Below, piece after piece: positions 3,640 through 54,930 of a DNA stretch of 64,000 nt. A program made the position numbers and the translations under genes. The notes beneath the pieces were generated by a model that saw only the letters and a list, made by a program, of their open reading frames with translations, was not told the origin of the DNA and made no database searches. Where the stretch lies: the NCBI GenBank assembly GCA_034113565.1, contig JAXEXE010000031.1:14885-78884 (forward strand), read 5' to 3'. The stretch comes from Faecousia sp. Its GTDB lineage: Bacteria; Bacillota; Clostridia; Oscillospirales; Oscillospiraceae. Position 1 is the stretch's first letter; every line of letters begins with the position of its first letter.

Positions 3640-3900
3640 GATATAGAAAAGCGAAGATCGGGCTGCCGGATACCGGAACTGCCGCACAAGCGAGAGCGGG
3701 ATGGTGTAAGCCGCTTGGGCATGGTATTCAGGCTTTCTCCCGGGAGCTGCCCTCTGAAATAACAGTAGGTTGGGCCGCGTGACTGCGTTATGGGTCTTGG
3801 ATGTGTCTGCATCCGAAAAGCGCGCCGTTACGGCGAATTGCGGGTGGTACCGCGGAAGCTGGCCTTTCGTCCCGAATTGTGGGAGGAAAGGTTTATTTTT
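3640..3900 (+). promoter_or_regulatory. T-box riboswitch (Phe) upstream of pheST
   Basis: AG-box/GGTG apical motifs, candidate UUC specifier at 3727-3729, T-box AATTGCGGGTGGTACCGCG at 3836-3854, terminator hairpin plus U-tract at 3862-3900. Confidence 0.9.
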
Positions 3901-4987: not shown

Positions 4988-7375
4988 ATGAAACTCAACA
5001 GAAAATGGCTCAATGAAGAATTCGTTGACCTGTCCAATGTGTCCGATAAGGAATTTGTGGAAACCATGACCGTGTTCGGTCAGAAGGTGGAAACCTATGA
5101 GCGGATGGACGCTGAAATTAAAAATGTGGTGGTCGGCAAGGTGCTGTCCATGGTTCGCCACCCCAACTCCGACCATATGTGGATTTGTCAGGTGGACGTG
5201 GGACAGGGGGAGCCTGTTCAGATCGTCACCGGCGCACAGAATGTCCACGAGGGCGATCTGGTGCCCGCCGCACTGCACAACTCCTGGCTTCCCGGCGGCG
5301 TGCACATCACCAAGGGCAAGCTCCGGGGCGAAGTTTCCAACGGTATGCTCTGCTCCTTTGCCGAGCTGGGCCTGACCCAGAATGACCTGCCCGGTGCCTA
5401 TGCCGACGGCATCTGGATTCTGAATGACGAGGACTGCAAGATCGGCGAGGACATCAATCTGGTCATCGGCAACGATGATACGATTGTGGATTTCGAGATC
5501 ACCAACAACCGCCCTGACTGCTACTCCATCATTGGCCTTGCCCGGGAAGCGGCTGCCGCTTTTGGAAAGACCATGCGCCACCATGAACCTGTGGTTCACG
5601 GCAGCGACGCAGGCTCCATCTTCGAGCATCTGGATGTGGAGGTTCCCGCCGCCAATCTGTGCAACCGCTACTCCTCCCGGATGGTTGCCAACGTGAAGAT
5701 CGGCCCCTCTCCCAAGTGGCTGCGGCAGCGGCTCCGGGCCAACGGCGTCCGGCCCATCAACAACATCGTGGACATCACCAACTACGTCATGCTGGAGTAT
5801 GGTCAGCCCATGCACGCCTTTGACTACCGCTATGTTTCCTCCGGCAAGATTGTCGTGCGGGAAGCGGAAGAGGGGGAAACCCTCACCACACTGGACGGCA
5901 CCGTCCGGCAGCTGAAGGCCGGTATGCTGGTGATTGCAGATGACACCAAGCCCATCGGTCTTGCCGGTATCATGGGCGGCGAGAATTCCGAGATTGTGGA
6001 TGACACCACCATGGTGGTCTTCGAGTCCGCCAACTTCAACGGCACCTCCATCCGGCAGACCGCGCTGGCGCTGGGTATGCGTACCGAGGCATCCGGCAAA
6101 TTCGAAAAGAGCCTTGACCCCATGATGACCATTCCCGCCGTACAGCGGGCCTGTGAGCTGGTGGAGCTGCTCCAGTGCGGCGATGTTCTGGACGGCGTTA
6201 TTGATATCGTGAACTACGTCCCCCAGCCCAAGACGCTGCCTTTGGAAGTGGACAAGATCAACCGTCTGCTGGGTACGGAGATTTCCAAAGAGGAAATGGT
6301 TCGCTACCTGAATCTGCTGGAAATCCCCGTGGAGGGCGATACCATTTTGGTTCCCTCCTTCCGTCCCGACCTGAACCTGATGGCGGATATTGCCGAGGAA
6401 GTGGGCCGTGCCTACGGCTACAATGAAATTCCCACCACCGCATTCAAGAACTCCACCCAGGGCGGCTACACCGAGGAAATGAAGCTGGAAGCCAAGACCG
6501 GTACCCTGTGCCGCGCGATGGGCTACAATGAGATTATCACCTATTCCTTCACCTCCCCCACTGTCTTCGACCAGATTCGCCTGAGCGCGGACAGCCCCCT
6601 GCGCAATGCCCTGCGGATTCAGAATCCCCTGGGTGAGGATACCTCCATCATGCGTACCATCGCCCTGCCCTCCATGCTGGAAATTCTGTCCCGGAACAAC
6701 GCCTACCACAACAAGTCCGTGAAGCTGTACGAAATTGCCAAGATTTACCTGCCAGTTGCCGGTCAGCCCCTGCCGGAGGAACCGAAAATGCTGGTACTGG
6801 GCACCTACGGCGCAAATGAGACTTTCTTCACCCTGAAGGGCGAGCTGGAAGGTATCTTCGCCGGTCTGCGTCTGAAGAAGGCCAGCTATCACGCCGTGAA
6901 GGACAACCCCAGCTACCACCCCGGACGGTGCGCGGCTGTGGTCATCGATGGCATGGAAGTTGGCGTCATGGGTCAGGTGCATCCGCTGGTTGCCAAGAAT
7001 TATGGCATCGACACGGATGTGTACTGTGCGGAAATCAGCTTCACCAAGCTGCTGCAGTGCCGTCTGCCTGACGCCACCTATTCCCCCCTGCCCAAGTACC
7101 CCGCCGTCACCCGTGACCTGGCGCTGATTTGTGATGAAGCCGTCACCGTGGCACAGGCCGAGGAGGTCATCACCGCCGCCGCCGGAAAGCTGCTGCGGGA
7201 TGTGAAGCTGTTCGACATCTACCGGGGCGTGGGCGTACCCGAAGGCAAGAAGAGTATGGCTTTCTCGCTGGAGCTGCGGGCCGACGACCGCACCCTGACG
7301 GATACCGACTCCGAGGGCGTCGTAGCCAAGGTTCTGAACAGTCTGAAGGAAAAGCTGAACGCAACTCTGCGGTAA
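4988..7375 (+). CDS. pheT: Phenylalanine--tRNA ligase beta subunit
   Basis: tRNA-binding OB domain, ITNNRPDCYS, RPINNIVDITNY, C-terminal FDX-ACB domain (KYPAVTRDLA). Confidence 0.97.
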   Translation: MKLNRKWLNEEFVDLSNVSDKEFVETMTVFGQKVETYERMDAEIKNVVVGKVLSMVRHPNSDHMWICQVDVGQGEPVQIVTGAQNVHEGDLVPAALHNSWLPGGVHITKGKLRGEVSNGMLCSFAELGLTQNDLPGAYADGIWILNDEDCKIGEDINLVIGNDDTIVDFEITNNRPDCYSIIGLAREAAAAFGKTMRHHEPVVHGSDAGSIFEHLDVEVPAANLCNRYSSRMVANVKIGPSPKWLRQRLRANGVRPINNIVDITNYVMLEYGQPMHAFDYRYVSSGKIVVREAEEGETLTTLDGTVRQLKAGMLVIADDTKPIGLAGIMGGENSEIVDDTTMVVFESANFNGTSIRQTALALGMRTEASGKFEKSLDPMMTIPAVQRACELVELLQCGDVLDGVIDIVNYVPQPKTLPLEVDKINRLLGTEISKEEMVRYLNLLEIPVEGDTILVPSFRPDLNLMADIAEEVGRAYGYNEIPTTAFKNSTQGGYTEEMKLEAKTGTLCRAMGYNEIITYSFTSPTVFDQIRLSADSPLRNALRIQNPLGEDTSIMRTIALPSMLEILSRNNAYHNKSVKLYEIAKIYLPVAGQPLPEEPKMLVLGTYGANETFFTLKGELEGIFAGLRLKKASYHAVKDNPSYHPGRCAAVVIDGMEVGVMGQVHPLVAKNYGIDTDVYCAEISFTKLLQCRLPDATYSPLPKYPAVTRDLALICDEAVTVAQAEEVITAAAGKLLRDVKLFDIYRGVGVPEGKKSMAFSLELRADDRTLTDTDSEGVVAKVLNSLKEKLNATLR

Positions 7376-11784: not shown

Positions 11785-11895
11785 ATGAACAACCAGAATA
11801 AGAATCAGAACCAGAATAACAACAACCAGAATCAGAACAACAATCAGAACCAGAACAGCAACCAGAATCAGAACCAGAACAGAAACAGCCGCTGA
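11785..11895 (+). CDS. Unannotated 36-aa Asn/Gln-rich peptide (MNNQNKNQNQNNNNQNQNNNQNQNSNQNQNQNRNSR)
   Basis: RBS GGGAGG at 11771-11776, 8 nt before the ATG. Repeat variation falls mostly at synonymous positions (AAC/AAT). A terminator follows. Confidence 0.65.
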   Translation: MNNQNKNQNQNNNNQNQNNNQNQNSNQNQNQNRNSR

Positions 11896-26410: not shown

Positions 26411-26443
26411 AAAAGCGGCATCCGCCATGGATGCCGCCTTTTC
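26411..26443. terminator. Bidirectional terminator between vanZ and pcrA
   Basis: gcggcatcc-gccat-ggatgccgc with flanking A- and T-tracts. Confidence 0.7.
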
Positions 26444-28581
26444 TATACCGATACATAGCACAGCTTTGCCCCGGGGGCAAAGGTTCTTGGAGTCACAATG
26501 GTGTCAAACTGGACGATGACGCCCTCCCGGTCTCTGGGGACACCAATCACGGTGCCCTGGCCGAAAATCGGATGACTTACCCGTTTGCCTGCGGGATTTT
26601 CCGCCGCCTGTTTCTCCGGCACCTCCGACGTGGCAATCTGCCGCTGTGTCCGTTCCATCAGCTCGGGGTCTATAGGCGTTACATATTCCACATTTTCCGG
26701 TTCCGCATTGAACAGGAACCTGCTGGGACTGCGGAAGGAGCCATCATAATTGCTGCCGGAAGCATCGGACAGGAACAGTCTGTCCCGGGCGCGGGTGAAG
26801 GCTACATAGCACAGCCGCCGTTCCTCCTCCAGCTTTTCCCGGGTATTCGCCCGCTTGCCGGGGAAAATCCCCTCGGAAAAGCCGCATAGAAATACCACCG
26901 GAAACTCAAGGCCCTTTGCCGCGTGAATGGTCATCAGCTTCACCGCCTGAGCTTTTTCCGTCTGGTCCATGTTGGTAAACAGCGCCGCATGGTCAAGGTA
27001 GTTGCCCAGCGTTACCTCCTCCCCGGCTTTTCCCGCAAAGTCATAGATTGCCTGCTTCAGCTCCGCCAGATTGTCAAGCCGCTCTTCTTCCCCGCTGGCA
27101 CGGAGCATATCTTCATAACCGCTCTCATGTAAGATACCTGCCAGCAGGTCTGTCAAATCCATTCCGTCATAAATCGCGCGGTACTTTTCAATCAGCCGAA
27201 CATATTCCCGTGCCCGGCTCCGGCGGAACAGTTCCGTGTCCAGATTGGCTGTCAGCGCTTCGTACAGGCTGCATCCGTTCAGCTGGGCGAATTCCTTCAG
27301 AGCGGAAATTCTGGTGCGGCCCACCCCCCGGCGGGGCTCGTTCACCGTGCGGAGAAAACTGATATCATCGCCGCTGTAGACCATGCGAAGATAACACAGA
27401 ACATCCTTAATCTCCTTGCGCTTGTAGAACTCCACGCCGGAGTAGAGTACATAGGGAATCTTGCTGCGGATCAGGGATTCCTCCACGGCGCGGGACACAT
27501 AATGTGCCCGGTACAGCACACCCATGGCGGAATAGGGCATTCCGCCATCATGCAGAGCGCGCATATTCGCCGTGATCCAGTCTGCCTCCAATTGACCGGT
27601 CTTCCCGTGAAAATAAAGGGGTTTCCTGCCATCCGGGCGGACGGAGGTCAGCTGCTTTTTCAGCCGGTTTCTGTTTTTGTCAATGAGCGCGTTGGCAGCC
27701 GTCAGTATCTGGGGAACGGAACGGTAGTTGGTGTTCAGATAGATGGTTTTGGCCTGAGGGTGGCGGCTTTCAAATTCCAGAATAAAGTTCACGTCCGCAC
27801 CCCGCCAGGTGTAGATGGTCTGGTCCGGGTCCCCTACCACGAACAGATTTTTGTGGTAACCGGACAGAATTTCCGCCAAAGCATACTGGTCTTTGTCGAT
27901 ATCCTGAAATTCGTCTACCATGATGTATTCCAGCCGCTGCTGCCACTTCTCCCGAACCATCTTATCCCGCTCCAGAATGTACAGGGCAAAATACACCAGA
28001 TCGTCAAAATCCAGCCCGTAGCATTTGCGCTGCTCATAGAAATAGCGGTACAGAACTTTGTCCTTCAGCGTATTGGCAGAATCGGACAGCGTGCGAAGCT
28101 GCTCCGGGTCGCCGATCAGGGTTTTCACATATCCCCTGCCGCCCTTGCGCCAGCCGATGTGATCTACCGCTTCCTTGATGGTCAGCTCCCGGCTGGTAAT
28201 GCCCAGGTCTTCGAATACCCGGCGGAGAATGGATTCCTTGTCTTCCTCGTCCAGGACAATAAACGTGGTGGGGTACTGGACAACGTGGCAGTCCTCCTTC
28301 AGAAGCCCCACGCAGAAGCCGTGAAATGTCGTAATTCTCCCCAAGTCCTGATCCGGCAGCTGACGCCGGATACGCTTTTTCATTTCCGCCGCCGCCTTGT
28401 TGGTAAAGGTCACGCACAGAATGTTGGCTGTAGAGATGCCCAGCATTTCTACCAGATACAGATACCGTGCTGTCAGGGTTTTGGTTTTGCCGGAACCGGC
28501 TCCGGCTACCACCCGGATGTAGCCCTCGGTCGTAATCGCTGCCTCCCTCTGCTGGGGGTTCAGTTCTTCCAAATACGTCAT
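26443..28581 (-). CDS. pcrA: UvrD/PcrA family ATP-dependent DNA helicase
   Basis: VVAGAGSGKT, TFTNKAA, VDEFQD, VGDPDQTIYTWRGA, TIHAAKGLEF, EERRLCYVAFTRA, C-terminal VSHPIFGQG. Confidence 0.9.
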   Translation of the reverse strand: MTYLEELNPQQREAAITTEGYIRVVAGAGSGKTKTLTARYLYLVEMLGISTANILCVTFTNKAAAEMKKRIRRQLPDQDLGRITTFHGFCVGLLKEDCHVVQYPTTFIVLDEEDKESILRRVFEDLGITSRELTIKEAVDHIGWRKGGRGYVKTLIGDPEQLRTLSDSANTLKDKVLYRYFYEQRKCYGLDFDDLVYFALYILERDKMVREKWQQRLEYIMVDEFQDIDKDQYALAEILSGYHKNLFVVGDPDQTIYTWRGADVNFILEFESRHPQAKTIYLNTNYRSVPQILTAANALIDKNRNRLKKQLTSVRPDGRKPLYFHGKTGQLEADWITANMRALHDGGMPYSAMGVLYRAHYVSRAVEESLIRSKIPYVLYSGVEFYKRKEIKDVLCYLRMVYSGDDISFLRTVNEPRRGVGRTRISALKEFAQLNGCSLYEALTANLDTELFRRSRAREYVRLIEKYRAIYDGMDLTDLLAGILHESGYEDMLRASGEEERLDNLAELKQAIYDFAGKAGEEVTLGNYLDHAALFTNMDQTEKAQAVKLMTIHAAKGLEFPVVFLCGFSEGIFPGKRANTREKLEEERRLCYVAFTRARDRLFLSDASGSNYDGSFRSPSRFLFNAEPENVEYVTPIDPELMERTQRQIATSEVPEKQAAENPAGKRVSHPIFGQGTVIGVPRDREGVIVQFDTIVTPRTFAPGAKLCYVSV

Positions 28582-28685
28582 TTATGCAGCGCCTCCTTTG
28601 GAGGAAGGATAGCATCCTTCCAGTCCAATAAACCGGGCACGATTGAAACATCTGTCAAAATCCATGGATTCTCAACATTTTTCTC

Positions 28686-28714
28686 TTGCATTATTCCGTG
28701 CAGCGTGGTATAAT
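28686..28714 (+). promoter_or_regulatory. SigA promoter of the aro operon leader
   Basis: TTGCAT-N17-TATAAT with an extended -10 TG. Confidence 0.8.
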
Positions 28715-28746
28715 GTCCGCAGCTAAAGGACTTGGAGGTACTTTCC

Positions 28747-28815
28747 ATGGTTCGGGATTGTACGGTCAGCGCTTTCTTTTATCGCTACTATTACTTTTTT
28801 CACCTGAAAAAGTAA
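28747..28815 (+). CDS. Phe/Tyr attenuator leader peptide, MVRDCTVSAFFYRYYYFFHLKK
   Basis: RBS GGAGG at 28734-28738. Eight of nine consecutive codons are Phe or Tyr, directly upstream of an aromatic biosynthesis operon. Confidence 0.85.
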   Translation: MVRDCTVSAFFYRYYYFFHLKK

Positions 28816-28898
28816 TAGCGATTTGTGCTGCAAAGAATCCCAAGGCTGAATCAAGTATTTGAGCGCCGCACGAATTGCCCGTGCGGCGCTTATTTTTT
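28781..28898 (+). promoter_or_regulatory. Transcription attenuator with 1:2, 2:3 and 3:4 hairpins
   Basis: 1:2 atcgcta..ttacttttt/aaaaagtaatagcgat. 2:3 pairs 28818-28831 with 28865-28878 (13 of 14 positions). 3:4 is an 11-bp stem at 28862-28890 plus a U-tract. Confidence 0.85.
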
Positions 28899-28914
28899 AG
28901 GAGATGTGTAAATT

Positions 28915-29916
28915 ATGATCGCGATTCTGAAACCCGGCACCACCCCCGAGCAGACCCAGCATCTTGTAAGCTGGCTGAAAACCATGAATCTGGATGTCCA
29001 TATTTCTCAGGGCGCGGAAGTCACCGTTCTGGGACTGATTGGAGACACCAGCCGCGTGGATATGGACCTTCTGAAAAGTCTGGAAATGGTAGAAACGGTC
29101 AAGCGGGTCTCTGAACCCTTCAAGCAGGCAAACCGAAAATTTCATCCTCAGGACACCATTGTTGAGGCGGGCAGCGCCAGAATCGGCGGCGGCTACTTTG
29201 CCATGATCGCCGGTCCCTGCTCCGTGGAATCCGAGGAGCAGATCATTGAAGTGGCCCAGGCGGTGAAAGCCTCCGGCGCAACCATGCTTCGCGGCGGCGC
29301 CTTCAAGCCCCGCACCTCCCCCTACGCCTTCCAGGGCATGAAGGGCGAGGGTATCCAGCTGCTGCTGAAGGCCAAGGAAGCCACCGGCCTTCCCATCGTG
29401 ACAGAGCTGATGAACATTTCCACCCTGGATCTGTTTGCGGATGTGGACGTCATTCAGGTGGGTGCGCGGAATATGCAGAATTTTGACCTTCTGAAGGAGC
29501 TGGGCAAAACCAAGAAGCCCATCCTGCTGAAGCGGGGCCTTGCCAACACCATTCAGGAGCTGCTCATGAGCGCGGAGTACATCATGAGCGAGGGCAATGA
29601 GAACGTCATTCTCTGCGAGCGGGGCATCCGTACCTTTGAGACCGCCACCCGCAATACCCTGGACCTGTCCGCCGTAGCTGTGCTGCACCACCTGACCCAC
29701 CTGCCTGTGGTGGTCGATCCCAGCCATGCCACCGGCAAGGCTGATCTGGTTGCACCCATGGCCTATGCGGCAACCGCCGCCGGTGCCGACGGCATCATGG
29801 TGGAGGTGCACAACAATCCTGCCTGCGCTCTGTGCGACGGTGCCCAGTCCCTGACCCCGCCCCAGTTTGACGAGCTGAGCCGGAAGGTGCAGAAGATTCG
29901 TGAGGTTCTGGTATGA
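28915..29916 (+). CDS. aroF: DAHP synthase (type I-beta, N-terminal regulatory domain)
   Basis: [52 protein letters not shown]. Confidence 0.95.
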
Positions 29917-30743
29917 ATGTTGGTATTCTGGGTCTCGGCCTGATCGGCGGTTCCCTTGCCCAGGCCTATGCGCTGGAAGGGCACACCGTTTACGCGATTC
30001 AGAGAAACGAGGCCATGCTGTCCTTTGCCATGCTGGCGGGCGCGGTGCATGGCAAGCTGAATGAAGAGACCATTCCCAAGTGCGACCTGATTCTGCTGGC
30101 AATCTACCCCGACGGCAGCGCCTCCTGGCTGGAAAAGAACGCCCCTCTGATTTCCAAAAACGCACTGGTGCTTGACTGCTGCGGAGTGAAGCGGGAAATC
30201 TGCACCCGGTGTTTCCCTGTGGCAAAGCAGTACGGGTTTACCTTTGTAGGCGGGCATCCTATGGCCGGTTCCCAGTTCTCCGGCTTCAAATACAGCCGGG
30301 CTGATTTGTTTGCCGGCGCACCCATGGTGCTGGTGCCCGCGGTGTTTGACGATATTGCCCTGCTTCAGCGGGTCAAGGACGCCCTGAAGCCCTGTCATTT
30401 CGGCTTCTTTTCCGTCACCACCGCGGAAGATCACGACAAGATGATTGCCTTCACCTCCCAGATGCCCCACATTCTGAGCAACGCCTTTATCAAATCCCCC
30501 ACCGCCCTGAAGCACAAGGGCTTCTCGGCAGGCAGCTATAAGGATTTGACGAGAGTCGCGTGGCTGAATCCGCAAATGTGGGCGGAGCTGTTTCTGGAAA
30601 ACCGGGACAACGTTCTGTTTGAACTGGACTACTATATTGAAAGCTTGAAGCAATACCAGCAGGCCATCCGGGATGAGGATATGGATGCTCTGGTGCAGCT
30701 GCTGGACGAGGGCAGGAAGCGAAAGGAAGAGGTGGACGGATGA
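29913..30743 (+). CDS. tyrA: Prephenate dehydrogenase
   Basis: GLGLIGGS, GGHPMAGS, HDKMIAFTSQMPH, GSYKDLTRVA. Confidence 0.92.
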   Translation: MNVGILGLGLIGGSLAQAYALEGHTVYAIQRNEAMLSFAMLAGAVHGKLNEETIPKCDLILLAIYPDGSASWLEKNAPLISKNALVLDCCGVKREICTRCFPVAKQYGFTFVGGHPMAGSQFSGFKYSRADLFAGAPMVLVPAVFDDIALLQRVKDALKPCHFGFFSVTTAEDHDKMIAFTSQMPHILSNAFIKSPTALKHKGFSAGSYKDLTRVAWLNPQMWAELFLENRDNVLFELDYYIESLKQYQQAIRDEDMDALVQLLDEGRKRKEEVDG

Positions 30744-31774
30744 ATACCGTAACCGTCAGCGCATCCAAAACCTATGACATTCTCATTGGCAGCGGTCTGC
30801 TGCCTCAGCTGGGAGCACAGGTAAAAAAGCTTGGCAAGGCCTCGAAAATCTGCGTGGTCAGCGAGACTACCGTCTTTCCTCTCTACGGGAAAACAGTGAC
30901 GGAAAGTCTGGAAGACGCCGGGTTTTCTGTGGTGAATTTCGTTTTCCCCGCCGGAGAGGAAAGCAAAAACGGCTCTGTTTTTCTGGAACTTCTGAATTTT
31001 CTGGCGCAGAGCGGGCTGACACGTACAGATATCGTCGTTGCCTTGGGCGGCGGCGTGACCGGCGACCTTGCCGGGTTCGCGGCGGCAAGCTTCCTGCGGG
31101 GTATTCGCTTTGTTCAGGTCCCCACTACCCTGCTGGCAGCGGTGGATTCCTCGGTAGGCGGCAAAACCGCCATCGATCTGCCCGCAGGCAAGAATCTGGC
31201 AGGTGCTTTCTGCCAGCCCAGTCTGGTGCTGTGTGATACCGACACCCTGGATACCCTGCCCACCGATATTTTCCGGGACGGCTGCGCCGAAGTCATCAAG
31301 TACGGTATTCTGTACGACCCCGTGCTGTTCGCCCACTTGGAAGAAAAAGGGCTGGACTTTGACCGGGAGGCCGTTATCACCCGGTGCGTGGAATTAAAAC
31401 GGGATGTTGTCATGGAGGACGAATTCGACACCGGGGCAAGAATGAAGCTGAATCTGGGCCACACCATCGGGCATGGTGTGGAAGCTAAGAGCAATTTCAC
31501 CCTGTCCCACGGGAAATCCGTTGCCATCGGCATGGCAATCGTCAGCCGGGCCTGCGGCTGTGTGGATACCCCCCGGATACTGGCAATTCTACGCCAGTTT
31601 GGCCTTCCAACCACCACGGAAGACACCGCCGACGAAATTCTCTCCTACGCCTTGTCCGATAAGAAGCGCTCCGGCGATTTGGTAAAGCTGATTCTTCCCA
31701 ATGCCATCGGCGACTGCGCCATCGTTCCGACACCGGTTAGTAAACTGAAATCCTTCATTCAGGCGGGGCTGTAA
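30740..31774 (+). CDS. aroB: 3-dehydroquinate synthase
   Basis: GGGVTGDLAGF, PTTLLAAVDSSVGGKT, LNLGHTIGH. Confidence 0.95.
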   Translation: MNTVTVSASKTYDILIGSGLLPQLGAQVKKLGKASKICVVSETTVFPLYGKTVTESLEDAGFSVVNFVFPAGEESKNGSVFLELLNFLAQSGLTRTDIVVALGGGVTGDLAGFAAASFLRGIRFVQVPTTLLAAVDSSVGGKTAIDLPAGKNLAGAFCQPSLVLCDTDTLDTLPTDIFRDGCAEVIKYGILYDPVLFAHLEEKGLDFDREAVITRCVELKRDVVMEDEFDTGARMKLNLGHTIGHGVEAKSNFTLSHGKSVAIGMAIVSRACGCVDTPRILAILRQFGLPTTTEDTADEILSYALSDKKRSGDLVKLILPNAIGDCAIVPTPVSKLKSFIQAGL

Positions 31775-31776
31775 TT

Positions 31777-32967
31777 ATGGATATTACCATTCAACCCCGA
31801 AGCTTGCGGGGAGACATCACAATCATTCCTTCCAAGTCTCAGGCCCACCGGCTGCTGATCTGCGCTGCCTTTGCGGATGCGCCAACCATTCTTCACTGCC
31901 CGGAAACCAACCGGGATATGGATGCTACCGCCGGATGCCTGAACGCGCTGGGTGCGCAAATTGAAAAAACGAAGACAGGCTACACCGTCGCTCCCGTGCG
32001 GCATACTCCTGATAAGGCGGAGCTGAACTGCCACGACAGCGGCTCTACCCTGCGGTTTCTGCTGCCGGTTGCCGGTGCGCTGGGTGTGGACACTACTTTT
32101 CACATGGAGGGAAGGCTCCCGCAGCGGCCCCTGTCTCCCATGTGGGAGGAAATGGAACGGATGGGCTGCATTCTGACCCGTCCCACTACCGACACCATTC
32201 GCTGCACCGGAAAGCTGAAAGCCGGACACTACCGCATTGACGGCAGCGTATCCAGCCAGTATATTACCGGCCTGCTGCTGGCACTTTCCCTGCTGGATGC
32301 CCCCAGCGCGCTGGAAATCACCGGAAAGGTCGAGTCCAAGCCGTATATTCAAATGACGAAGGACGCCGTTTCCCTGTTTGGCGCGGACCCGGAGCATCCC
32401 GGCGCGGTGCGGTTCCATTCCCCGGGAAGCCTGACCGTGGAGGGAGACTGGAGCAACGGCGCGTTCTTCCTTGCCGCCAACGCTTTGGGAAGTCAACTCA
32501 ATATCCACGGGCTGAAACCGGATTCTTCTCAGGGGGATCGGGCAGCGGCAGAACTGCTGCCGAGGCTGTTGGAAGGTGTGCAGGTGATCGAAGCCGGAGA
32601 TATTCCGGATCTGGTACCGATCCTGTCCGTGGTTGCAGCCTGCTGCCACGGCGCGGAATTTGCGAACATCCGGCGGCTGCGGCTGAAGGAATCCGATCGG
32701 GTAGCTTCCGTTATCGCCATGATTACGGCTCTTGGCGGCAGGGCGAAAGCAGACGAGAATACGCTTCGCGTTTTCGGCACCGGACTGACCGGCGGAACGG
32801 TGGACAGCGTCAACGATCACCGCATCGCCATGTCCGCCGCGATTGCCGCTACCGTCTGTAGGGAGCCGGTGACGATTCTCGGCGCGGATTGTGTCAAAAA
32901 ATCGTATCCCAAGTTTTTTGAGGAATACCGCCGGTTAGGAGGAAATTATGAGCAGCACCTACGGTGA
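31777..32967 (+). CDS. aroA: EPSP synthase
   Basis: PSKSQAHR, SGSTLRF, SSQYITG, EGDWS, RLKESDR, DHRIAM, KSYPKF. Confidence 0.95.
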   Translation: MDITIQPRSLRGDITIIPSKSQAHRLLICAAFADAPTILHCPETNRDMDATAGCLNALGAQIEKTKTGYTVAPVRHTPDKAELNCHDSGSTLRFLLPVAGALGVDTTFHMEGRLPQRPLSPMWEEMERMGCILTRPTTDTIRCTGKLKAGHYRIDGSVSSQYITGLLLALSLLDAPSALEITGKVESKPYIQMTKDAVSLFGADPEHPGAVRFHSPGSLTVEGDWSNGAFFLAANALGSQLNIHGLKPDSSQGDRAAAELLPRLLEGVQVIEAGDIPDLVPILSVVAACCHGAEFANIRRLRLKESDRVASVIAMITALGGRAKADENTLRVFGTGLTGGTVDSVNDHRIAMSAAIAATVCREPVTILGADCVKKSYPKFFEEYRRLGGNYEQHLR

Positions 32968-34039
32968 AAATTTGAAACTGACCATTTTCGGGCAGTCCCA
33001 CGGAGCCGCCGTCGGCATGACGCTGGACGGAATACCGGCGGGGCTTCCCGTGGATTTTGAGGAATTACAGGCATTTCTGAACAGAAGAGCCCCGGGGCAG
33101 AATTGCTGGTCTACCCCCCGGAAGGAGGAGGACCGCCCGGATTTCCTGGCGGGGATTCTGGATGGCTTTACCTGCGGCGCGCCCATTGCCGCCGTCATTC
33201 ACAACACAAACACCCGCTCCGGTGACTACACCAACCTGCGCGACTGCCCCCGCCCGGGACACGCGGACTACACTGCTCAGGTCAAGTATGGCGGCTTTCA
33301 GGACGCGGCAGGCGGCGGGCATTTCTCCGGGCGGCTGACGGCGCCCCTGTGCATCGCGGGAGGGCTGTGCAAACAGTGGCTGGCGGAACGGGGCATTCGC
33401 GTTGCCGCGCGGATTGCAGCCATTGCCGGAGTAGAGGATAATTTCGAGGTGAATCCCCTGAACCCCCAGTTAGATTTGATCGGAAACGATTTTCCCGTTT
33501 TCTCCCCGGATGCCGGGGCGCGGATGCGGGAGAAAATTGCCGAGGCAAGGTCGGATTGTGACAGTGTCGGCGGCATCATCGAGTGCTACATCATCGGAGT
33601 GCCTGCCGGATTGGGAGAGCCGATGTTCGGCGGTGTGGAAAGCCGGATTGCCCAGATTGTTTACGGCGTGCCTGCCGTGAAATCCGTGGAATTTGGCGTT
33701 GGCTGTGAAGCCGCCAATTTGCGCGGCAGCCAGTGCAACGATGCCTTTACCATTGACGATGGGCAAATCTGCACGATGACCAACAACGCGGGCGGTATTC
33801 TTGGCGGCATTACCAATGGAATGCCCGTGATTTTCCGGGCCGCCATCAAGCCCACGCCGTCCATCTCCCGGCCCCAGCAGAGCGTCTGCCTGAGCAAGGG
33901 AGCGGTGCAGGAGCTGGTGGTAAAAGGCCGTCACGATCCCTGCATTGTCCCCAGAGCGGTTCCCGTGATTGAGGCGGCTGCGGCTATCGCCATGTTTGAC
34001 CTGATTCTTGGGAATACACAGACAGACAGGAGGAAGTAA
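32948..34039 (+). CDS. aroC: Chorismate synthase
   Basis: FGQSHG, PRPGHADY, GGHFSGRLTA, GGILGGIT, KPTPSI, GRHDPCI. Confidence 0.95.
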   Translation: MSSTYGENLKLTIFGQSHGAAVGMTLDGIPAGLPVDFEELQAFLNRRAPGQNCWSTPRKEEDRPDFLAGILDGFTCGAPIAAVIHNTNTRSGDYTNLRDCPRPGHADYTAQVKYGGFQDAAGGGHFSGRLTAPLCIAGGLCKQWLAERGIRVAARIAAIAGVEDNFEVNPLNPQLDLIGNDFPVFSPDAGARMREKIAEARSDCDSVGGIIECYIIGVPAGLGEPMFGGVESRIAQIVYGVPAVKSVEFGVGCEAANLRGSQCNDAFTIDDGQICTMTNNAGGILGGITNGMPVIFRAAIKPTPSISRPQQSVCLSKGAVQELVVKGRHDPCIVPRAVPVIEAAAAIAMFDLILGNTQTDRRK

Positions 34040-34043
34040 AGCC

Positions 34044-35186
34044 ATGGATTTGTCAGAAATCCGTCAGCAAATTGACGAAATCGATCAGGAGCTGGTGGAG
34101 CTGTTCTGCCGGCGGATGAGCCTGTCCGCACAGGTTGCCGACTACAAAAAAGCCAACAATCTGCCGATTTTTGTTCCCGCCCGGGAGCGGGCAATCCTAC
34201 AGAAGGTGGCGGAACTGGCAGGCCCGGAGATGGAAAACTATACCCGGGTACTGTACTCCATGCTCTTCGAGCTGAGCCGCAGCTACCAGAGCAAGCGCAA
34301 CGGTGAAATCAGCCCGCTGTACCAGTCCATTTCCAAGGCCATTGAGGAAACACCAAAGCTATTCCCTCAGGCGCCTACCGTCGCCTGTCAGGGTGTGGAG
34401 GGAGCCTACTCCCAGATTGCCTGTGAGAAAATCTTCAAAAGTCCCTTCATTATGTATTTCAAAAACTTTGAGGGAGTATTCAACGCCATTGAGCAGGGTA
34501 TGTGCCAATACGGCGTTCTGCCCATTGAGAATTCCACGGCAGGCTCCGTCACCAAGGTTTACGACCTGATGATCCGGCACAATTTCTCCATCGTCCGCAC
34601 TTTCCGACTGAAGGTGGACCACAATCTGCTGGCAAATCCTGGCGCTTCCCTTGCCAACATCAAGACCATCTATTCCCACGAACAGGCCATTAATCAATGC
34701 AGCGACTTCCTTCGCGGTCTGCCCGGTGTCAACGTGGTCGCCGTGGAAAACACCGCAATGGCGGCGGAAATGGTAGCGAAATCCGGTGAGAAGGACGTGG
34801 CCGCCCTGTCCAGCCGCTCCTGTGCGGAGCTGTACGGGCTGAGCTGCCTTGCCGCCTCCGTGCAGGACAAGGGCAACAACCGCACCCGGTTTATCTGCAT
34901 CAGTAAAAATCTGGAAATCTACCCCGGCTCCGACAAAACCAGCATCATGATGGTTCTCCCCCATAAACCCGGCGCCCTGTATAAGGTGCTGGCGCGGCTT
35001 TACACTCTGGGCATCAACGTGACCAAGCTGGAATCCCGGCCCATTCCCGACCGGGAGTTTGAGTTCATGTTCTACTTTGATCTGGATACTTCTATTTATT
35101 CGGAGGAATACGTGCAGCTCATGTGTGAGCTGAACGAATTGTGCGAGGAATTTAAGTATCTGGGCAGCTATACCGAGGTGATTTGA
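34044..35186 (+). CDS. pheA: Chorismate mutase / prephenate dehydratase
   Basis: AroQ-type CM N-terminus (IRQQIDEIDQ), QGVEGAYS, PIENSTAG, NRTRF, ACT domain (TKLESRP). Confidence 0.93.
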   Translation: MDLSEIRQQIDEIDQELVELFCRRMSLSAQVADYKKANNLPIFVPARERAILQKVAELAGPEMENYTRVLYSMLFELSRSYQSKRNGEISPLYQSISKAIEETPKLFPQAPTVACQGVEGAYSQIACEKIFKSPFIMYFKNFEGVFNAIEQGMCQYGVLPIENSTAGSVTKVYDLMIRHNFSIVRTFRLKVDHNLLANPGASLANIKTIYSHEQAINQCSDFLRGLPGVNVVAVENTAMAAEMVAKSGEKDVAALSSRSCAELYGLSCLAASVQDKGNNRTRFICISKNLEIYPGSDKTSIMMVLPHKPGALYKVLARLYTLGINVTKLESRPIPDREFEFMFYFDLDTSIYSEEYVQLMCELNELCEEFKYLGSYTEVI

Positions 35187-36412
35187 TGAAATGCGGCTTA
35201 TTGGGGCGGAAGCTGGGACACAGCTATTCCCCCCAGATTCACGGGATGCTGGGCGATTATTCCTATGCGCTTTTTGAAAAAGAGCCGGAACAGCTGGCTT
35301 CTTTTCTCAAGGATGGGGATTTTACCGGAATCAATGTGACCATTCCCTACAAAAAAGATGTGATTCCCTACCTGGAGGAGCTGTCCCCCGCCGCCCGGAA
35401 AATCGGTTCCGTGAATACCATCGTCCGCAGAGCAGATGGTACGCTCTATGGGCACAACTCCGATTATTTTGGCTTTGTCTCACTGGTAAGGCACTGCGGT
35501 ATCGCTGTGGATGGGAAAAAGGCTCTGGTTCTGGGCAGCGGCGGCACCTCCAATATGGTGGTGACAGCGCTGACGGATTTGGGCGCTGCGCCCGTTGTGA
35601 TTTCCCGCTCCGGGGAAAACAACTACGACAATCTGCACCTGCACGCCGATGCGTCCGTGATCGTCAATGCAACACCCGTAGGTATGTACCCAAATACCGG
35701 CGTCTCCCCCATTGACCTGAACCGCTTTCCCAAATTGGAGGGCGTGCTGGATGTGATCTACAATCCCGCGAAAACCAAATTGCTGCTGGATGCCGAAGCT
35801 TTGGGTATCCCCCACGAAAACGGCCTGTGGATGCTGGTTGCCCAGGCAAAGGAAGCATCGGAATGCTTTACGGGAAAGAAGCTGCCGGACAGCTGCATTG
35901 GAAAAATCCATCACATTTTGTCCTGTCAGATGAAAAACATCGTCCTCATTGGGATGCCCGGCTGCGGAAAAAGCACCGTAGGCAAACTATTGGCGGAGAA
36001 ACTGGGACGGTCATTCGTGGATGCCGATGAAAAAATCATCCAATTGGCAGGAAAGTCCATTCCCGAGATTTTCGCCCAGGACGGAGAAGAAGTCTTCCGC
36101 AAATGGGAGACGGCAGCGCTGGAGAATTTGGGCAAGCAATCCGGTTTGGTGATCGCCACCGGCGGCGGCTGTGTCACCCGGATGCGCAACTACCCTGCCC
36201 TTCATCAGAACGGTAACATGATCTGGCTGGAGCGGGACTCGTCCCTGCTGCCAACAGACGGGCGGCCTTTGTCTCAGGCCAACCGTTTGGAGGAAATGTA
36301 TGCTGTTCGAAAGCCCATGTACGAATCCTTCGCGGATGTTCGGGTGGAAAACGCCGGAAGTCCGGAGCAGACTGTGGGCGAAATTTTGTCACAGCTGGAG
36401 GAATTGTCATGA
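35183..36412 (+). CDS. aroE: Shikimate dehydrogenase-shikimate kinase fusion (AroE-AroK)
   Basis: HSYSPQIH, NVTIPYK, SVNT, NSDYFG, LGSGG, followed by the kinase P-loop IGMPGCGKS and ATGGG. Confidence 0.9.
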   Translation: MMKCGLLGRKLGHSYSPQIHGMLGDYSYALFEKEPEQLASFLKDGDFTGINVTIPYKKDVIPYLEELSPAARKIGSVNTIVRRADGTLYGHNSDYFGFVSLVRHCGIAVDGKKALVLGSGGTSNMVVTALTDLGAAPVVISRSGENNYDNLHLHADASVIVNATPVGMYPNTGVSPIDLNRFPKLEGVLDVIYNPAKTKLLLDAEALGIPHENGLWMLVAQAKEASECFTGKKLPDSCIGKIHHILSCQMKNIVLIGMPGCGKSTVGKLLAEKLGRSFVDADEKIIQLAGKSIPEIFAQDGEEVFRKWETAALENLGKQSGLVIATGGGCVTRMRNYPALHQNGNMIWLERDSSLLPTDGRPLSQANRLEEMYAVRKPMYESFADVRVENAGSPEQTVGEILSQLEELS

Positions 36413-36840
36413 AAATTCTGGTAATCAACGGCCCGAATCTCAATATGCTGGGCATCCGGGAGCCGGGAATCTACGGCAAAAATACCTTTGCCGATCTTCT
36501 TACCCTGCTGGAGGATACCGCAAAGGAGCAGGGTGTGGAAGTCGAACAGTATCAGTCCAACCATGAGGGAGATATTGTGGACAAAATTCAGTGGGCCTAC
36601 GGAAAAATTGACGGAATCGTTATCAATCCTGCCGCCTACACCCACACCTCCGTGGCAATTCTGGACGCCCTGAAAGCGGTTTCTATTCCCACTGTGGAGG
36701 TACATATCTCCGATGTGGACGCCCGGGAACCCTTCCGGCAGATTTCCTACGCCGGGATGGCCTGCTGCAAAACCATCAAGGGTCACGGCTTTCAGGGCTA
36801 CCGGGAAGCGATACAGTACCTTGTGGAACAATATGGATGA
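36409..36840 (+). CDS. aroQ: Type II 3-dehydroquinate dehydratase
   Basis: NGPNLNMLGIREPGIYG, QSNHEG, INPAAYTHTS, EVHISD. Confidence 0.95.
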   Translation: MKILVINGPNLNMLGIREPGIYGKNTFADLLTLLEDTAKEQGVEVEQYQSNHEGDIVDKIQWAYGKIDGIVINPAAYTHTSVAILDALKAVSIPTVEVHISDVDAREPFRQISYAGMACCKTIKGHGFQGYREAIQYLVEQYG

Positions 36841-36844
36841 AAAA

Positions 36845-36882
36845 TGCGGCTATCGCCTCGCTTGAGACGATAGCCGTTCTTT
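36845..36882. terminator. Bidirectional terminator
   Basis: cggctatcg..cgatagccg hairpin between convergent genes. Confidence 0.65.
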
Positions 36883-39800
36883 TATTCGACCGATTTTAGC
36901 GCTTCCGCCATGTTAATCTTGTCCAGCCGGAAGTAGAACACAAAGTCCACAACCAGTGCGGACAGCAGCGTCAGGCTGATGGACCAAACGTAGGAAATCG
37001 GCTCTGCCAGTACCGTAAACCAGACCATGTCAATCTTGATCTGGCTCATGACGAAAATCAACAGCAGCTTGCCAAACACCAGCCCCAGCAGCGCGCCGAC
37101 CACCGTCAGCGCCAGATTCTCCTTGAACACGTAGGCAGCTGTTTCCGAGGCGTTGAAGCCAAGAACCTTGATGGTGGCAATCTCCCGAATTCGCTCGTTG
37201 ATGTTGATGTTGGTCAGGTTGTAAAGAACCGTCACCGCCAGAAGTCCCGCGCAGAAGACGATAACCCAGACCACCAGATCCATCGCTTCCATCATTCTGC
37301 TTACCGTTGCCGCCAGGTCCTCGCTGACCGACACATTCATCACATAGCTTAAGTCGCTGATTGCAGCGCCGAGGGCGTGGACATCGGCACCGTCCTTCAT
37401 TCGGACAAAGGCCATCTGGTATTCCGGTTCCTTCCCCCACTGGCCGGCAATGGTTTCCGTTGAAACAATGGCGTAATTGTATATGTGATTGTCATAGACG
37501 CCGGACACCGTCAGGTGCAGCTCCTCCAGATCGCCACTGCGCAGAATCAGCTCGTCCCCTTCCCGGATGCCCAGATTCTCCGCAACTCCGGAGGACAGGA
37601 GCACCTGATCCTTTCCGGGCATGGAGAGCCGGTTATCCCCCTTGTGGAAATCAATGAATCCGGCAAGCTCGTCACCGCCGGAAAGCAGATAGATTTCCTT
37701 TACCCGGTTGTCAAAGTCCAGTTCTACACTGCTCTGGTGATAGAACATCATGTTTTCGGCATCCCGCTCTACCGTTTGTCTGAACTTTTCCTGCTGCCGT
37801 TCAGAAGGCTCCTCCCGAAAATAGACGGAAATATCATACTTTGTAACATTTTCAAATTGATAGTTCACAATATTGGAAATGGAATCCCGCAGGCCAAAGC
37901 CTGTCAGCAGCAGCGCCGTACAGCCGCCGATGCCAATGAGCATCATGGCCAGCCGCTGCCGGTAGCGGAAGATGTTTCGGATGGTCACCTTATTCAGGAA
38001 GCTGATTTTCTTCCAGAAAGGCAACCTTTCCACAAAGATCTGCTTTCCCGCCTCCGGCGCCTTGGGGCGGATCAATTCTGCCGGATTCTCTGCCAGAGTC
38101 TTATGGCAGCACCACCAGGTGACAAAGAGCATGACCGCCGTATAGATTACCAGCACCGCTATGGAAAGAGGCCAGTTGAAGGTTAAAACCACATTGGGCT
38201 GAATATTCAGCATGATGCAGTAGGCTTTCCAGAGAATCTGGGGAAAAACAGTACAGCCCGCCGCAATGCCCAGAGCGCAACCCAGCACCGCGCCGCTGCC
38301 GGAATAGATGAGGTATTTGCTCATGATCTCCCGGTCGGTGTAGCCCAGCGCTTTCAGTGTGCCGATCTGTGTGCGCTCCTCATCGATCATCCGGGTCATT
38401 GTGGTAATGCAGACCAGCGCCGCAATCAGGATGAAAAACACCGGGAACACCCGGGAGACGCCCGCCACAATATCCGAAGAACTGTCCAGATTGTTATAGC
38501 CCACGTTGCTGTTCCGGTCCAGAATCATCAGATCCGGCGTGTCCATGGAATCAATCTCGTCACGGGCATCCAGCAGTTCTTCCTCCGCGTCCTTCAGCTC
38601 CGCTTCGGCATCCGCCAGTTCTTTTTCGGCGTCCTGCTTTGCCTGCTCATAATCCTGCCAGCCGTCCTCCAGCTCATCTTTTCCTTTCTTCCACTCGCCC
38701 CAGCCGACAGCCAGTTTCTTTTCGGCATTGTTCAGCTTGATTTCATTGTCCCACATCTTCTGCTCGCCCTGATCGATTTGGGCGCCGGCATCGGCAAGCT
38801 GCTTCTGCACGGCAGCCTTTTGATTTTCCAGCGCGGAATACTGGGCTTGTACCGATGCCATCGCATTGGCGACTTCCAAAATATGATTCGCCGTGTCAAG
38901 CGGCAAACCGGCGCCGCTCAAACGATCACTCAGGGTCTTCTTTTCCTGCTGCAAATCGTCTATCTGTTTTTGAATCGACGCAATTTCACTGTCCTGCGCC
39001 GACTGAAGCTTCTCGGTAAGTCTTGGAAGCTCATCATCAATCGCATCGATTCTGTCATTCCACTCAACCACAGACTGGGCGGCTGAAACCTGATCCTTTA
39101 CCTGATTATAGGCCTCTTTGACGGGTGCGCTCTGGGTATCCAGCTCCTGCTTCATGGCCGCAAACTGCGCTTCCGCCTCCGCCTTCTTCTGTGCCAGTTC
39201 TTTTCGCCCGGCTTCAATCTGCCCACGGGCTTCTTCGATTTTCTCTCTGCCGTCCTTGATTTCCTTCCCGCCATCGATCAGCTTTTTTCGGTTCTTCTCC
39301 AGTTCCTCCTCGCCGTCTTTCAGCTTCTTTTCCGCATCGGCAAGTTCCTTCTCCGCGTCTTTCTTCGCGTCCTCATATTCCTTGACGCCGTCCTGATACT
39401 CCCGATAGCCCTTATCGTATTCTTCCTCCGCCTCTGCCTTGACATCGGAAAAACGTTCTTCACACAGCTGCTCTGCCCGCGAGTTCAGCCGGTCAGCTTC
39501 CGCATCCAGAAAATCGTTGTATTCCTCGGTGTAGATTTTGTGACTGCCGTCAAGCCGAAGATGAATCTCCGTATAATAATCGTTGTCCAGCGCTGCCTTG
39601 GGCACATAGAAACAGTCAGAAAGAGAGCCGCTGCCCACGGAAGTGGTCCCCCGGTTCATATCCATATAAAGCGGCGAGGACACATAGCCCACAATGGTGA
39701 AGGTCTTCTGAACCACCTTGTCAAGGGAATCCGGGTCATTGCTGTCGGAAATCGTGATCGTAGTGCCGAGAACACTGTCGTCATTGCGATAGCCGTCGAC

Positions 39801-52056: not shown

Positions 52057-53280
52057 TTAAGCCAAAACCGCCTTGTGGAAGACCTTTTTCCCCTTGCGAA
52101 TTTTCACGCCTTCTTTCAGCATTTCTTCCGTCACAGAGAACTGGGCCGAGGGAACCTTCTCGTCGTTGACCAGCACGCCGCCCTGCTCTACCAGTTGGCG
52201 CGCCTGCTTGTTGGAGGGAGCCAGACCACAGGCAACCATCAGATTCAGAATGCCGATTCTGCCGTCGGTGAGCTTGTCGGCGGTAATCTCGGTGGTGGGC
52301 ATATTGGCGTCGTCACCGCCGCCCACGAACAAAGCCTTGGATGCGGCCTTTGCCTTGTCCGCCTCTTCCTCGCCGTGCACCAGCTTGGTCAGCTCGTAAG
52401 CGAGGATTTCCTTGGCCTCGTTCAGCTTGGCGTCCTTCCAGTCGGACATGGCGTCGATTTCCTCCAGGGGCAGGAAGGTCAGCATCCGCAGGCACTTAAG
52501 CACGTCCGCGTCATCCACATTCCGCCAGTACTGGAAGAATTCAAAGGGAGAGGTCTTGTTGGGGTCCAGCCAGACAGCGCCCTTGGCGGTCTTGCCCATC
52601 TTCTTGCCCTCGGAATTGAGAAGCAGGGTGATGGTCATGGCGTGGGCATCCTTGCCCAGCTTGCGGCGGATCAGCTCGGTGCCGCCCAGCATATTGCTCC
52701 ACTGGTCGTTGCCGCCGAACTGCATGTTGCAGCCGTAGGTCTGGAACAGGTGGTAGAAATCGTAGGACTGCATAATCATGTAGTTGAATTCCAGGAAGGA
52801 AAGGCCCTTTTCCATGCGCTGCTTGTAGCACTCGGCCCGGAGCATATTGTTCACGGAGAAGCAGGCGCCTACCTCCCGCAGAACGTCCACATAGTTAAGG
52901 TCCAGCAGCCAGTCGGCGTTGTTGACCATCATCGCCTTGCCCTCGCCGAACTCGATAAACCGCTCCATCTGCTTTTTGAAGCAGTTGCAGTTGTGCTGGA
53001 TGGTCTCCCGGGTCATCATGGAGCGCATATCCGTACGGCCGGAGGGGTCGCCGATCATGGCAGTGCCGCCGCCGATCAGGGCGATGGGGCGGTTACCCGC
53101 CATTTGCAGCCGCTTCATCAGGCACAGGGCCATGAAGTGGCCCACATGGAGGGAATCGGCAGTGGGATCAAAGCCAATGTAGAAGGTGGCCTTGCCGTTG
53201 TCGATCAGGTCGCGGATCTCTTCTTCGTTGGTCACCTGGGCAATCAGGCCCCGGGCAACCAGTTCATCATACAGTTTCAT
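52057..53280 (-). CDS. tyrS: Tyrosine--tRNA ligase
   Basis: [30 protein letters not shown]-terminal S4 domain. Confidence 0.97.
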
Positions 53281-54880: not shown

Positions 54881-54930
54881 CCCGGCTATCCTAGCAAAGA
54901 TAGCCGATTTTGTCAAGTTTTTTGTGGTTT

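Follow-up and report, generated by a model that had tools for sequence, protein, structure and literature searches.

Among enterobacteria, leader-peptide attenuation serves as the textbook example of an amino-acid switch, and the usual picture in Bacillota consists of T-boxes, TRAP, riboswitches and a polymerase that outruns the ribosome. Leaders related in design to the one studied here have been reported from other lineages. In C. glutamicum, ribosome stalling at the aroR leader (Phe-Tyr-Phe) before aroF raises transcription, as found experimentally (Neshat et al. 2014, as given in the passage of PMC11802643 on this leader). In Acholeplasma and environmental sequences, uORFC-13-1 was predicted as an upstream open reading frame with Phe codons, provided with a promoter, a ribosome-binding site (RBS) and a start codon, and followed immediately by an intrinsic terminator and aroF (Brewer et al. 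2021, PMC8632094). Furthermore, histidine leader peptides were predicted before hisS/hisZ paralogues in Bacillus (Naville and Gautheret 2010, PMC2965389). In the present study, the aroF leader in a 64,000-nt stretch of a Faecousia sp. genome (order Oscillospirales; the whole stretch is called the window below) was analyzed. Judged from sequence and folding models, this leader is very probably a ribosome-mediated (leader-peptide) transcription attenuator of aroF-tyrA-aroB-aroA-aroC-pheA-aroEK-aroQ, which would sense the supply of charged tRNA-Phe and tRNA-Tyr. An earlier note, made from the letters of the window, had proposed the same mechanism.

Layout and conservation of the leader

The leader occupies the 333-nt intergenic gap between the divergent helicase gene pcrA (26443-28581, minus strand) and aroF, which starts at 28915. 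The sigma-A type promoter, the GGAGG RBS and the leader reading frame with the run F-F-Y-R-Y-Y-Y-F-F were found exactly where the earlier note had placed them (Table 1). In this run, eight of nine consecutive codons specify Phe or Tyr (4 Phe and 4 Tyr). The promoter spacer is 17 nt with the TG counted, and 14 nt to TGG. A generic promoter scan of the window did not list this promoter because TTGCAT matches TTGACA at 3/6 positions. The putative promoter was accepted on grounds of its conservation across the genus: the consensus CTTGCAAT...GTGGTATAAT was kept in an alignment of 41 sequences, and the −35 TTGCA(A/T) together with TGGTATAAT was present genus-wide. Transcription is predicted to start at ~28721.

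A run of this kind is rare. When the 3.03-Mb genome was translated in all six frames (6.07 million positions), windows with at least 8 Phe/Tyr in 9 residues occurred only twice, and the aroF leader was one of the two. As controls, small open reading frames (sORFs) with six or more aromatic residues out of nine were counted, and appeared in 0.2% of the random 405-nt windows drawn from this genome, 1.0% of other loci and 3.5% of AT-rich windows. The Phe/Tyr run in the leader is not due to chance. The second genome window, TFFKYYRYYFFYFL, lies at ~15310 on the minus strand of contig C85 in an AT-rich stretch and probably is a chance occurrence; the same contig also holds the start of a tet(M)/tet(W)-like gene.

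The upstream regions of aroF in relatives were compared next to the window sequence. The gene was found in 47 of 61 related genomes, and 400 nt upstream were aligned for 40 of them. The search for Phe/Tyr-rich sORFs that the earlier note had suggested was successful at 27 of 29 congeneric loci, each with an RBS-preceded ATG frame of 18-25 codons that ends ~100 nt before aroF and carries a run like QFYFSYYYFF. The start codon, the reading frame, the Phe/Tyr run and all helices were kept at 27/29 congeneric loci, so that the lack of conservation which the earlier note would have held against its own reading was not observed. In all 28 aligned relatives, the ATG-started frame was open to the same stop position, and the ATG and GGAGG columns were invariant or nearly so. 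The gaps visible in the leader coding region were 3, 6 or 9 columns long, and the N-terminal residues varied freely among the 28 sequences. Such a pattern, with the frame kept and the N-terminal residues free to vary, is characteristic of a translated frame in which the peptide outside the run is irrelevant. Segment 2 of the RNA was the most conserved stretch of the leader in both the 28- and the 41-sequence alignments. Moreover, among 11 aroF loci that belong to other families of the order, 9 carried an sORF with at least 6 Phe, Tyr or Trp in 9 residues, with a different sequence.

Two congeneric genomes (L059 in G005 and L061 in G033) had aroF with no Phe/Tyr-rich sORF upstream. In G005, segment 2b was kept, the terminator was weakened and the sORF read MNTSHVDELPAHGGLG. 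This could be a leader that has lost sensing, or an assembly problem in a metagenome-assembled genome (MAG) that is 78% complete. A further small frame was noticed downstream of the leader: four codons and their stop (ATG TGT AAA TTA TGA, 28904-28918, plus strand) begin just after the aroF Shine-Dalgarno sequence and overlap the aroF ATG out of frame. The corresponding stretch AGGAGATG was common in the genus alignment.

Helices, covariation and ribosome-footprint folding

The minimum free energy (MFE) fold and the duplex energies bore out both the 1:2 helix over the regulatory codons and the antiterminator of the earlier note. The 1:2 hairpin had an energy of −21.2 kcal/mol and covered leader codons 7-18, with segment 2 fully sequestered. 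The antiterminator was paired at 13 of 14 positions (28818-31 with 28865-78, including two G-U pairs and one U x C mismatch; duplex energy −18.3 kcal/mol), and this pairing occupied most of the terminator 5' arm. The terminator with its U-tract stood just before the aroF RBS, as proposed; its length had been given as 11 bp, which is the G+C-rich core, and the terminator scan counted 13 pairs (9 G-C; 28860-72 with 28880-92), a 7-nt loop and then TTTTTT, at −24.4 kcal/mol. The whole-leader fold reached −69.3 kcal/mol, with z = −6.1 relative to 200 dinucleotide shuffles. Most relatives had GCUGCACAG (codons 7-9, Ala-Ala-Gln) as segment 1a, which is a copy of the terminator 5' arm and paired with UGUGCUGC of segment 2; the segment 1a of the window differs (CAGCGC) yet makes the same pairing with segment 2. 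The stop codons of the window leader sit within the 1:2 helix, right before the antiterminator arm.

Helix covariation, which had been named as a check, was detected. In the terminator, 6 of 13 pairs showed changes on both sides among the 28 sequences, such as C-G to U-A and G-C to A-U, as exemplified by the variants CGCCGCACG/CGUGCGGCG and CGCUGCACA/UGUGCAGCG. The core of the 1:2 helix (1b:2a) was 93% paired across the same sequences, with compatible changes from U-A to U-G and one compensatory change from A-U to C-G, by which a Tyr codon became Ser in locus L055. For the antiterminator, counting by column gave 84% pairing and 2 double changes, a weak signal because MAFFT mis-registers the variable terminator loops. 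Instead, the duplex energy of segment 2 with the terminator 5' arm and loop was calculated per sequence, and cognate combinations were compared with all non-cognate ones. The cognate 2:3 mean was −15.8 kcal/mol and the non-cognate mean −14.0 kcal/mol (28 sequences). In an independent set of 67 distinct pairs among the public-genome matches listed, the values were −14.7 and −13.1 kcal/mol, respectively. In both sets, none of 10,000 permutations reached the observed value, which is supportive evidence and not proof. On visual inspection, the triplet that varies within segment 2 (GCG, GCA, GAG, GAA or GUA) shifted together with the loop (AAUUGC, AAUUUC or AGAUGC).

To model the three states, the nascent transcript was cut at the 3' end of segment 3 and folded while a ribosome footprint, from −18 to +12 around the A-site codon, was masked. 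For the window, the 2:3 helix had 0 bp when no ribosome was present (the 1:2 helix formed), 13 bp when the ribosome was stalled at any of the 8 Phe/Tyr codons, and 0 bp when it stood at the stop codon. Among the 28 sequences, 2:3 formed at most stall positions in 22 and at the stop codon in 1. In this model, footprint folding thus reproduces the three classical attenuator states.

The wider family and re-coding of the scaffold

Public genomes, one per species, were scanned with the segment-2 pattern. At least 120 loci were obtained, and 89 family members were found among the matches listed, to which the statements on carriers and the counts of loci by first downstream gene refer. Most carriers were MAGs labelled Faecousia sp., Oscillospiraceae or Acutalibacteraceae, and one was a cultured strain, [Clostridium] viride DSM 6836. 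An identical leader was present in one MAG, CAMFBN010000005.1.

The first gene downstream was aroF at 72 loci, all with a Phe/Tyr run (mean F 4.3, mean Y 3.9). At 11 loci from Acutalibacteraceae it was a stand-alone prephenate dehydrogenase gene, tyrA (PDH_N + PDH_C), with a mean F of 1.4 and a mean Y of 6.0; these leaders carried a Tyr-only run (YYYYYY), such as MKQFNAATYYYYYYL. At the remaining 5 loci listed by first gene (L077, L094, L100, L124 and L143), it belonged to an ABC importer with a TrpX-like PF04392 binding protein, a permease and an ATPase (mean F 5.6, mean Y 3.8). The codon run of one scaffold therefore follows the regulated gene, which is hard to explain unless the codons are read. 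The binding protein at the importer loci was closest to TrpX (225.9 bits, with a cut-off of 390), and the leader frame at most of them ran on through segment 2 before its stop. This importer is a candidate uptake system for Phe/Tyr.

In five Acutalibacteraceae genomes (G437-G441, loci L197-L201), a second, sequence-unrelated Phe/Tyr leader (e.g., MFQSYGFYRFYYNSLDCLCSARNCK) with a promoter, an RBS and a long terminator preceded an aminotransferase-pheA operon. In these same genomes, tyrA was preceded by the Tyr-only leader. The idea that pheA has a Phe-only leader in genomes with the Tyr leader was considered and rejected, as the leader there was mixed Phe/Tyr. In an order-wide tally with one mismatch allowed, the pattern was found in 23 of 401 genomes; a reversed-pattern control gave ~10 hits, and therefore only exact or near-exact hits were trusted. 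As far as the pattern tells, the sequence family is patchy within the order. On balance, and with the odds slightly in favor, we regard the element as one of a large uncatalogued family of re-codable leader-peptide attenuators, which would together make up a regulon for aromatic amino acids in Oscillospirales of the gut and rumen. In this regulon, the scaffold with segment 2 GTAATAGNNWTTTGTGYTGC would carry Phe and Tyr codons before the aroF operon and the TrpX-like importer, and a pure Tyr run before tyrA; unrelated Phe/Tyr leaders would serve aroF in other families and aminotransferase-pheA in Acutalibacteraceae.

Proposed mechanism and alternative explanations

According to the proposed mechanism, transcription would start at ~28721 and a ribosome would load onto the leader. 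With ample Phe-tRNA and Tyr-tRNA, the ribosome would reach the tandem stops at 28813-18, where its footprint would cover the start of segment 2 (to ~28825-28); segment 3 would then be free to pair with segment 4, and the polymerase would terminate at the U-tract (~28893-98). If no translation takes place, segment 1 (28765-28800) would sequester segment 2, and the terminator would form again. A stall anywhere in the run (28774-28800) would mask segment 1 and leave 28816-31 free. This stretch could pair with 28865-78 once the latter is made, by which the terminator 5' arm would be taken and the polymerase would read through into aroF. We infer that both Phe and Tyr are sensed; leader translation, stalling, ribosome-polymerase timing and the response to both amino acids are predicted parts of the mechanism. 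All structural features of leader-peptide attenuators were found at the locus: an sORF with RBS and start codon, a cluster of cognate codons, an intrinsic terminator, and an antiterminator with a sequestering upstream helix. The reading of the earlier note is supported by the conservation of the sORF and its run, the covariation of terminator and antiterminator, the three-state footprint folding and the Tyr-only re-coding before tyrA.

Several observations weigh against this reading. In the ribosome-free state, 9 of 28 relatives folded 2:3 instead of 1:2. The full-length transcript with a masked ribosome gave the terminator every time at equilibrium. As in E. coli, no other helix matches the terminator in stability, which makes such folding uninformative, and the mechanism therefore needs kinetic control, again as in E. 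coli, with ribosome and polymerase kept in step. Bacillota are classed at phylum level as having 'runaway' transcription (PMC13323073, PMC7858274), and in C. glutamicum, read-through at aroR was affected by limitation of Phe only and not of Tyr, according to the passage on it in PMC11802643. The predicted antiterminator of the Tyr-only tyrA leaders was weaker and was recovered in part. The permutation tests ignore phylogenetic relatedness and overstate independence. Pairing, too, forces the Tyr/Phe codons to be conserved at the nucleotide level, and the coding and RNA constraints are not fully separable. Finally, aroF was transcribed in the public metatranscriptome runs X2 and X3, and contigs of related strains covered the leader, one of them (X12) spanning the terminator; this RNA consists of assembled contigs broken at strain variants, which have no readable 5' or 3' ends.

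Some of these points would also be expected of a constitutive or degenerate leader, in which the terminator merely lowers expression or shields aroF from the promoter region of the divergent pcrA, and in which stalling is without regulatory effect in vivo as transcription outruns translation in Bacillota. The phylum-level classification (PMC13323073), the terminator that always wins in equilibrium folding, and the one or two congeners (G005, G033) that lost the run and keep aroF are in agreement with it. We nevertheless consider it very unlikely, since purifying selection on the start codon, the frame, the run and three exclusive helices across dozens of species and several families is hard to explain if the leader has no function. 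In addition, ribosome-dependent transcription attenuation operates at B. subtilis vmlR, as stated in the part of PMC9226507 on this gene, which shows that leaders can be locally coupled.

The high conservation of segment 2 could also point to a trans-acting factor (an RNA-binding protein, a small RNA or a metabolite) that binds GTAATAGCGATTTGTGCTGC and sets the switch, with the Phe/Tyr frame as a by-product of a U/A-rich pairing partner. Segment 2 is conserved beyond the needs of a simple helix arm and is nearly unchanged in at least two named families, and the Tyr/Phe codons are fixed at the nucleotide level through pairing with it. However, three constraints already explain this conservation, as segment 2 pairs with segment 1, pairs with segment 3 and holds the stop codons. 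A by-product frame would also hardly keep its ATG, RBS and phase while its N-terminal residues vary, nor turn Tyr-only before tyrA, nor recur with unrelated sequence at the 9 of 11 aroF loci of other families and before aminotransferase-pheA in Acutalibacteraceae. The leader also matched neither a riboswitch nor the T-box model and has no array of TRAP triplets. We consider a trans-acting factor very unlikely. A functional hydrophobic micropeptide, acting in the membrane or as a signal, with the hairpin as its leaky terminator and no amino-acid sensing, would account for the conserved aromatic core and the basic C-terminus (KK), a pattern possible in small membrane peptides. But conservation is limited to the run and the last residues, both inside RNA helices, and the rest varies freely. 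The amino acids of the run change with the gene under control (only Tyr before tyrA), the sORF is always joined, among the matches listed, to an antiterminator/terminator pair directly before aromatic-pathway genes, and the genome has no second copy. A micropeptide is therefore extremely improbable.

The downstream operon and its genome context

The eight-gene aro operon was as the earlier note had described it, with NCBIfam matches for its genes and ends that overlap or abut (Table 1). It comprises the whole common pathway and both the Tyr and the Phe branches, and therefore fits a leader rich in exactly these two codon families. The gene for tryptophan synthase alpha, TrpA (PF00290), was absent from the genome of the window (97.9% complete) and from 30 of 31 high-quality congeneric genomes. 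Phe and Tyr are therefore probably the sole amino-acid products of the operon, and by gene content the genus is probably a Trp auxotroph. The idea that the leader has no Trp codons since the organism cannot make Trp was rejected as a general rule, as a Trp codon and TrpA were uncorrelated among 12 other carriers.

Table 1. Positions of the leader elements and of the operon genes in the window.
Feature	Position	Strand	Details and basis
Sigma-A type promoter (putative)	28686-28714	+	−35 TTGCAT 28686-91; extended −10 TGGTATAAT 28706-14; read in sequence
Leader Shine-Dalgarno GGAGG	28734-28738	+	8 nt upstream of ATG at 28747
Leader open reading frame MVRDCTVSAFFYRYYYFFHLKK, 22 codons	28747-28815	+	TAA 28813-15, second in-frame stop TAG 28816-18; sequence and alignment
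Regulatory codon run F-F-Y-R-Y-Y-Y-F-F (TTC TTT TAT CGC TAC TAT TAC TTT TTT)	28774-28800	+	Proposed stall zone
Segment 1 (anti-antiterminator arm)	28765-28800	+	1a 28765-72 pairs with 28825-31; 1b 28781-28800 pairs with 28806-22; MFE fold
Segment 2 (switch segment), conserved core GTAATAGCGATTTGTGCTGC	28806-28831	+	Pairs with segment 1, or via 28818-31 with segment 3
Segment 3	28860-28879	+	Terminator 5' arm 28860-72 and loop 28873-79
Segment 4 and U-tract	28880-28898	+	Terminator 3' arm 28880-92; TTTTTT 28893-98
aroF RBS AGGAG	28899-28903	+	Sequence
aroF, 3-deoxy-7-phosphoheptulonate (DAHP) synthase	28915-29916	+	NCBIfam NF006421, 497.8 bits, cut-off 335
tyrA	29913-30743	+	NCBIfam
aroB	30740-31774	+	NCBIfam
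aroA	31777-32967	+	NCBIfam
aroC	32948-34039	+	NCBIfam
pheA (chorismate mutase/prephenate dehydratase, CM-PDT)	34008-35186	+	NCBIfam
aroE-aroK fusion	35183-36412	+	NCBIfam
aroQ	36409-36840	+	NCBIfam
Terminator 3' of aroQ	~36845-36885	+	After the last gene

The genome holds 11 T-boxes by the RF00230 model, two of them in the window. The T-box at 3645-3877 (plus strand; 71.8 bits, below the Rfam cut-off of 93) lies directly before pheS (ATG at ~3932, to 4974) and pheT (4988-7375). The other, at 54647-54881 (minus strand; 120.7 bits), precedes a 310-aa open reading frame (53298-54230, minus strand), for which NCBIfam gave no match, and then tyrS (52057-53280, minus strand). The remark of the earlier note that Firmicutes mostly use T-boxes or TRAP for aromatic pathways is thus too simple here, as T-boxes stand before pheST and the tyrS operon in the same window and both systems coexist. 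From this arrangement, the charging of tRNA-Phe and tRNA-Tyr would have two readers, namely T-boxes in the case of the synthetases and the ribosome in that of biosynthesis.

No second copy of the aroF-leader scaffold was found in the genome of the organism, and a crude scan of it for other leader-peptide attenuators returned noise only. Attenuator candidates on contigs C171, C167 and C164 were rejected as gene 3' ends or terminators beside a tRNA. Elsewhere in the window, a 36-codon open reading frame of Asn and Gln only (MNNQNKNQNQNNNNQ...; 11785-11895, plus strand) is preceded by an RBS-like motif and closely followed by a terminator-like hairpin of 13 bp.

Significance

In very abundant uncultured gut bacteria, the chief transcriptional control of the shikimate/Phe/Tyr pathway appears to lie in this conserved, covarying and ribosome-dependent design. 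Such a switch is somewhat unexpected in a 'runaway' phylum (PMC13323073, PMC7858274), and it is testable. If the leaders work as predicted, ribosome-polymerase coordination at leaders would be functional and under selection in a phylum that has been classed wholesale as 'runaway', and the present locus offers a concrete test case for transcription-translation coordination at Clostridia leaders. If it holds, T-boxes would report the charging of tRNA-Phe and tRNA-Tyr to the synthetase genes, and ribosome stalling would report it to the genes of biosynthesis and also uptake. Furthermore, the family fills an annotation gap, since such sORFs and RNAs were in no catalogue searched. It provides a natural case in which the same attenuator scaffold has been re-coded for different amino acids, of use in the design of synthetic sensors, and it helps to predict under which conditions gut Oscillospiraceae make aromatic amino acids and under which they import them.

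Comparison with known systems

A cmscan search of the region 28400-29100 with the full set of 4227 Rfam 15 models (E up to 10) gave only sub-threshold matches to unrelated small RNAs, which rested on the terminator hairpin. Known labels were rejected accordingly. The leader families of Rfam (Phe_leader RF01859, the Leu/Phe leader RF01743, and the Trp, His, Thr and Leu leaders) had no covariance-model match, the scan gave no riboswitch, and RF00230, with its stem I and specifier loop and the T-box sequence of the antiterminator, did not match the aroF leader, though the same model finds the 11 T-boxes elsewhere in the genome. A TRAP leader of the Bacillus trp type has 9-11 (G/U)AG triplets at a spacing of 2-3 nt, which overlap the antiterminator. 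TRAP regulation was ruled out for the aroF leader, which has 4 scattered (G/U)AG triplets in 28721-28900. The earlier note knew of no description of such a sensor in this lineage. This stands in so far as full-text literature searches gave no account of the Oscillospirales leader family; precedents do exist in the C. glutamicum aroR leader, as covered in PMC11802643, and in Acholeplasma uORFC-13-1 (PMC8632094). The family is uncatalogued in the catalogues searched, yet widespread, and the mechanism itself is the textbook one of E. coli.

Compared with the E. coli pheL-pheA and trpL-trpEDCBA leaders (RF01859, RF00513), the element of the window follows the same logic, namely a short translated leader with codons for the end product, exclusive 1:2, 2:3 and 3:4 helices, and an intrinsic terminator before the first biosynthetic gene. 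It differs from them in that it has no sequence or covariance-model similarity to either and its host belongs to Clostridia-class Bacillota and not to the proteobacteria. Its leader mixes two amino acids and controls the whole common pathway with both terminal branches in one operon, and its stop codons are inside the 1:2 helix, directly before the antiterminator arm.

The C. glutamicum aroR leader, compared by its description in PMC11802643, resembles the window leader in having Phe and Tyr codons before a DAHP-synthase operon. It belongs to an actinobacterium and has three regulatory codons against eight in the window; the two leaders are likely of independent origin. The uORFC-13-1 motif (PMC8632094), also compared by description only, shares the association with aroF, the general layout and a Bacillota-related lineage. 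It comprises 24 sequences from Acholeplasma only, with 'at least one' Phe codon and no mention of a Tyr run, whereas the window has a mixed Phe/Tyr run. The His leaders of Bacillus (PMC2965389) are likewise 'regular' amino-acid leader peptides predicted in Firmicutes, where T-boxes are usual; they concern another amino acid, other genes and another class (Bacilli), and are predictions only. Finally, the T-box responds to the same signal as the window element would, tRNA charging, by a choice between terminator and antiterminator, and it coexists with that element in the same genome. The T-box binds uncharged tRNA directly and needs no translation, whereas the aroF leader instead carries a Phe/Tyr sORF that is predicted to be translated.

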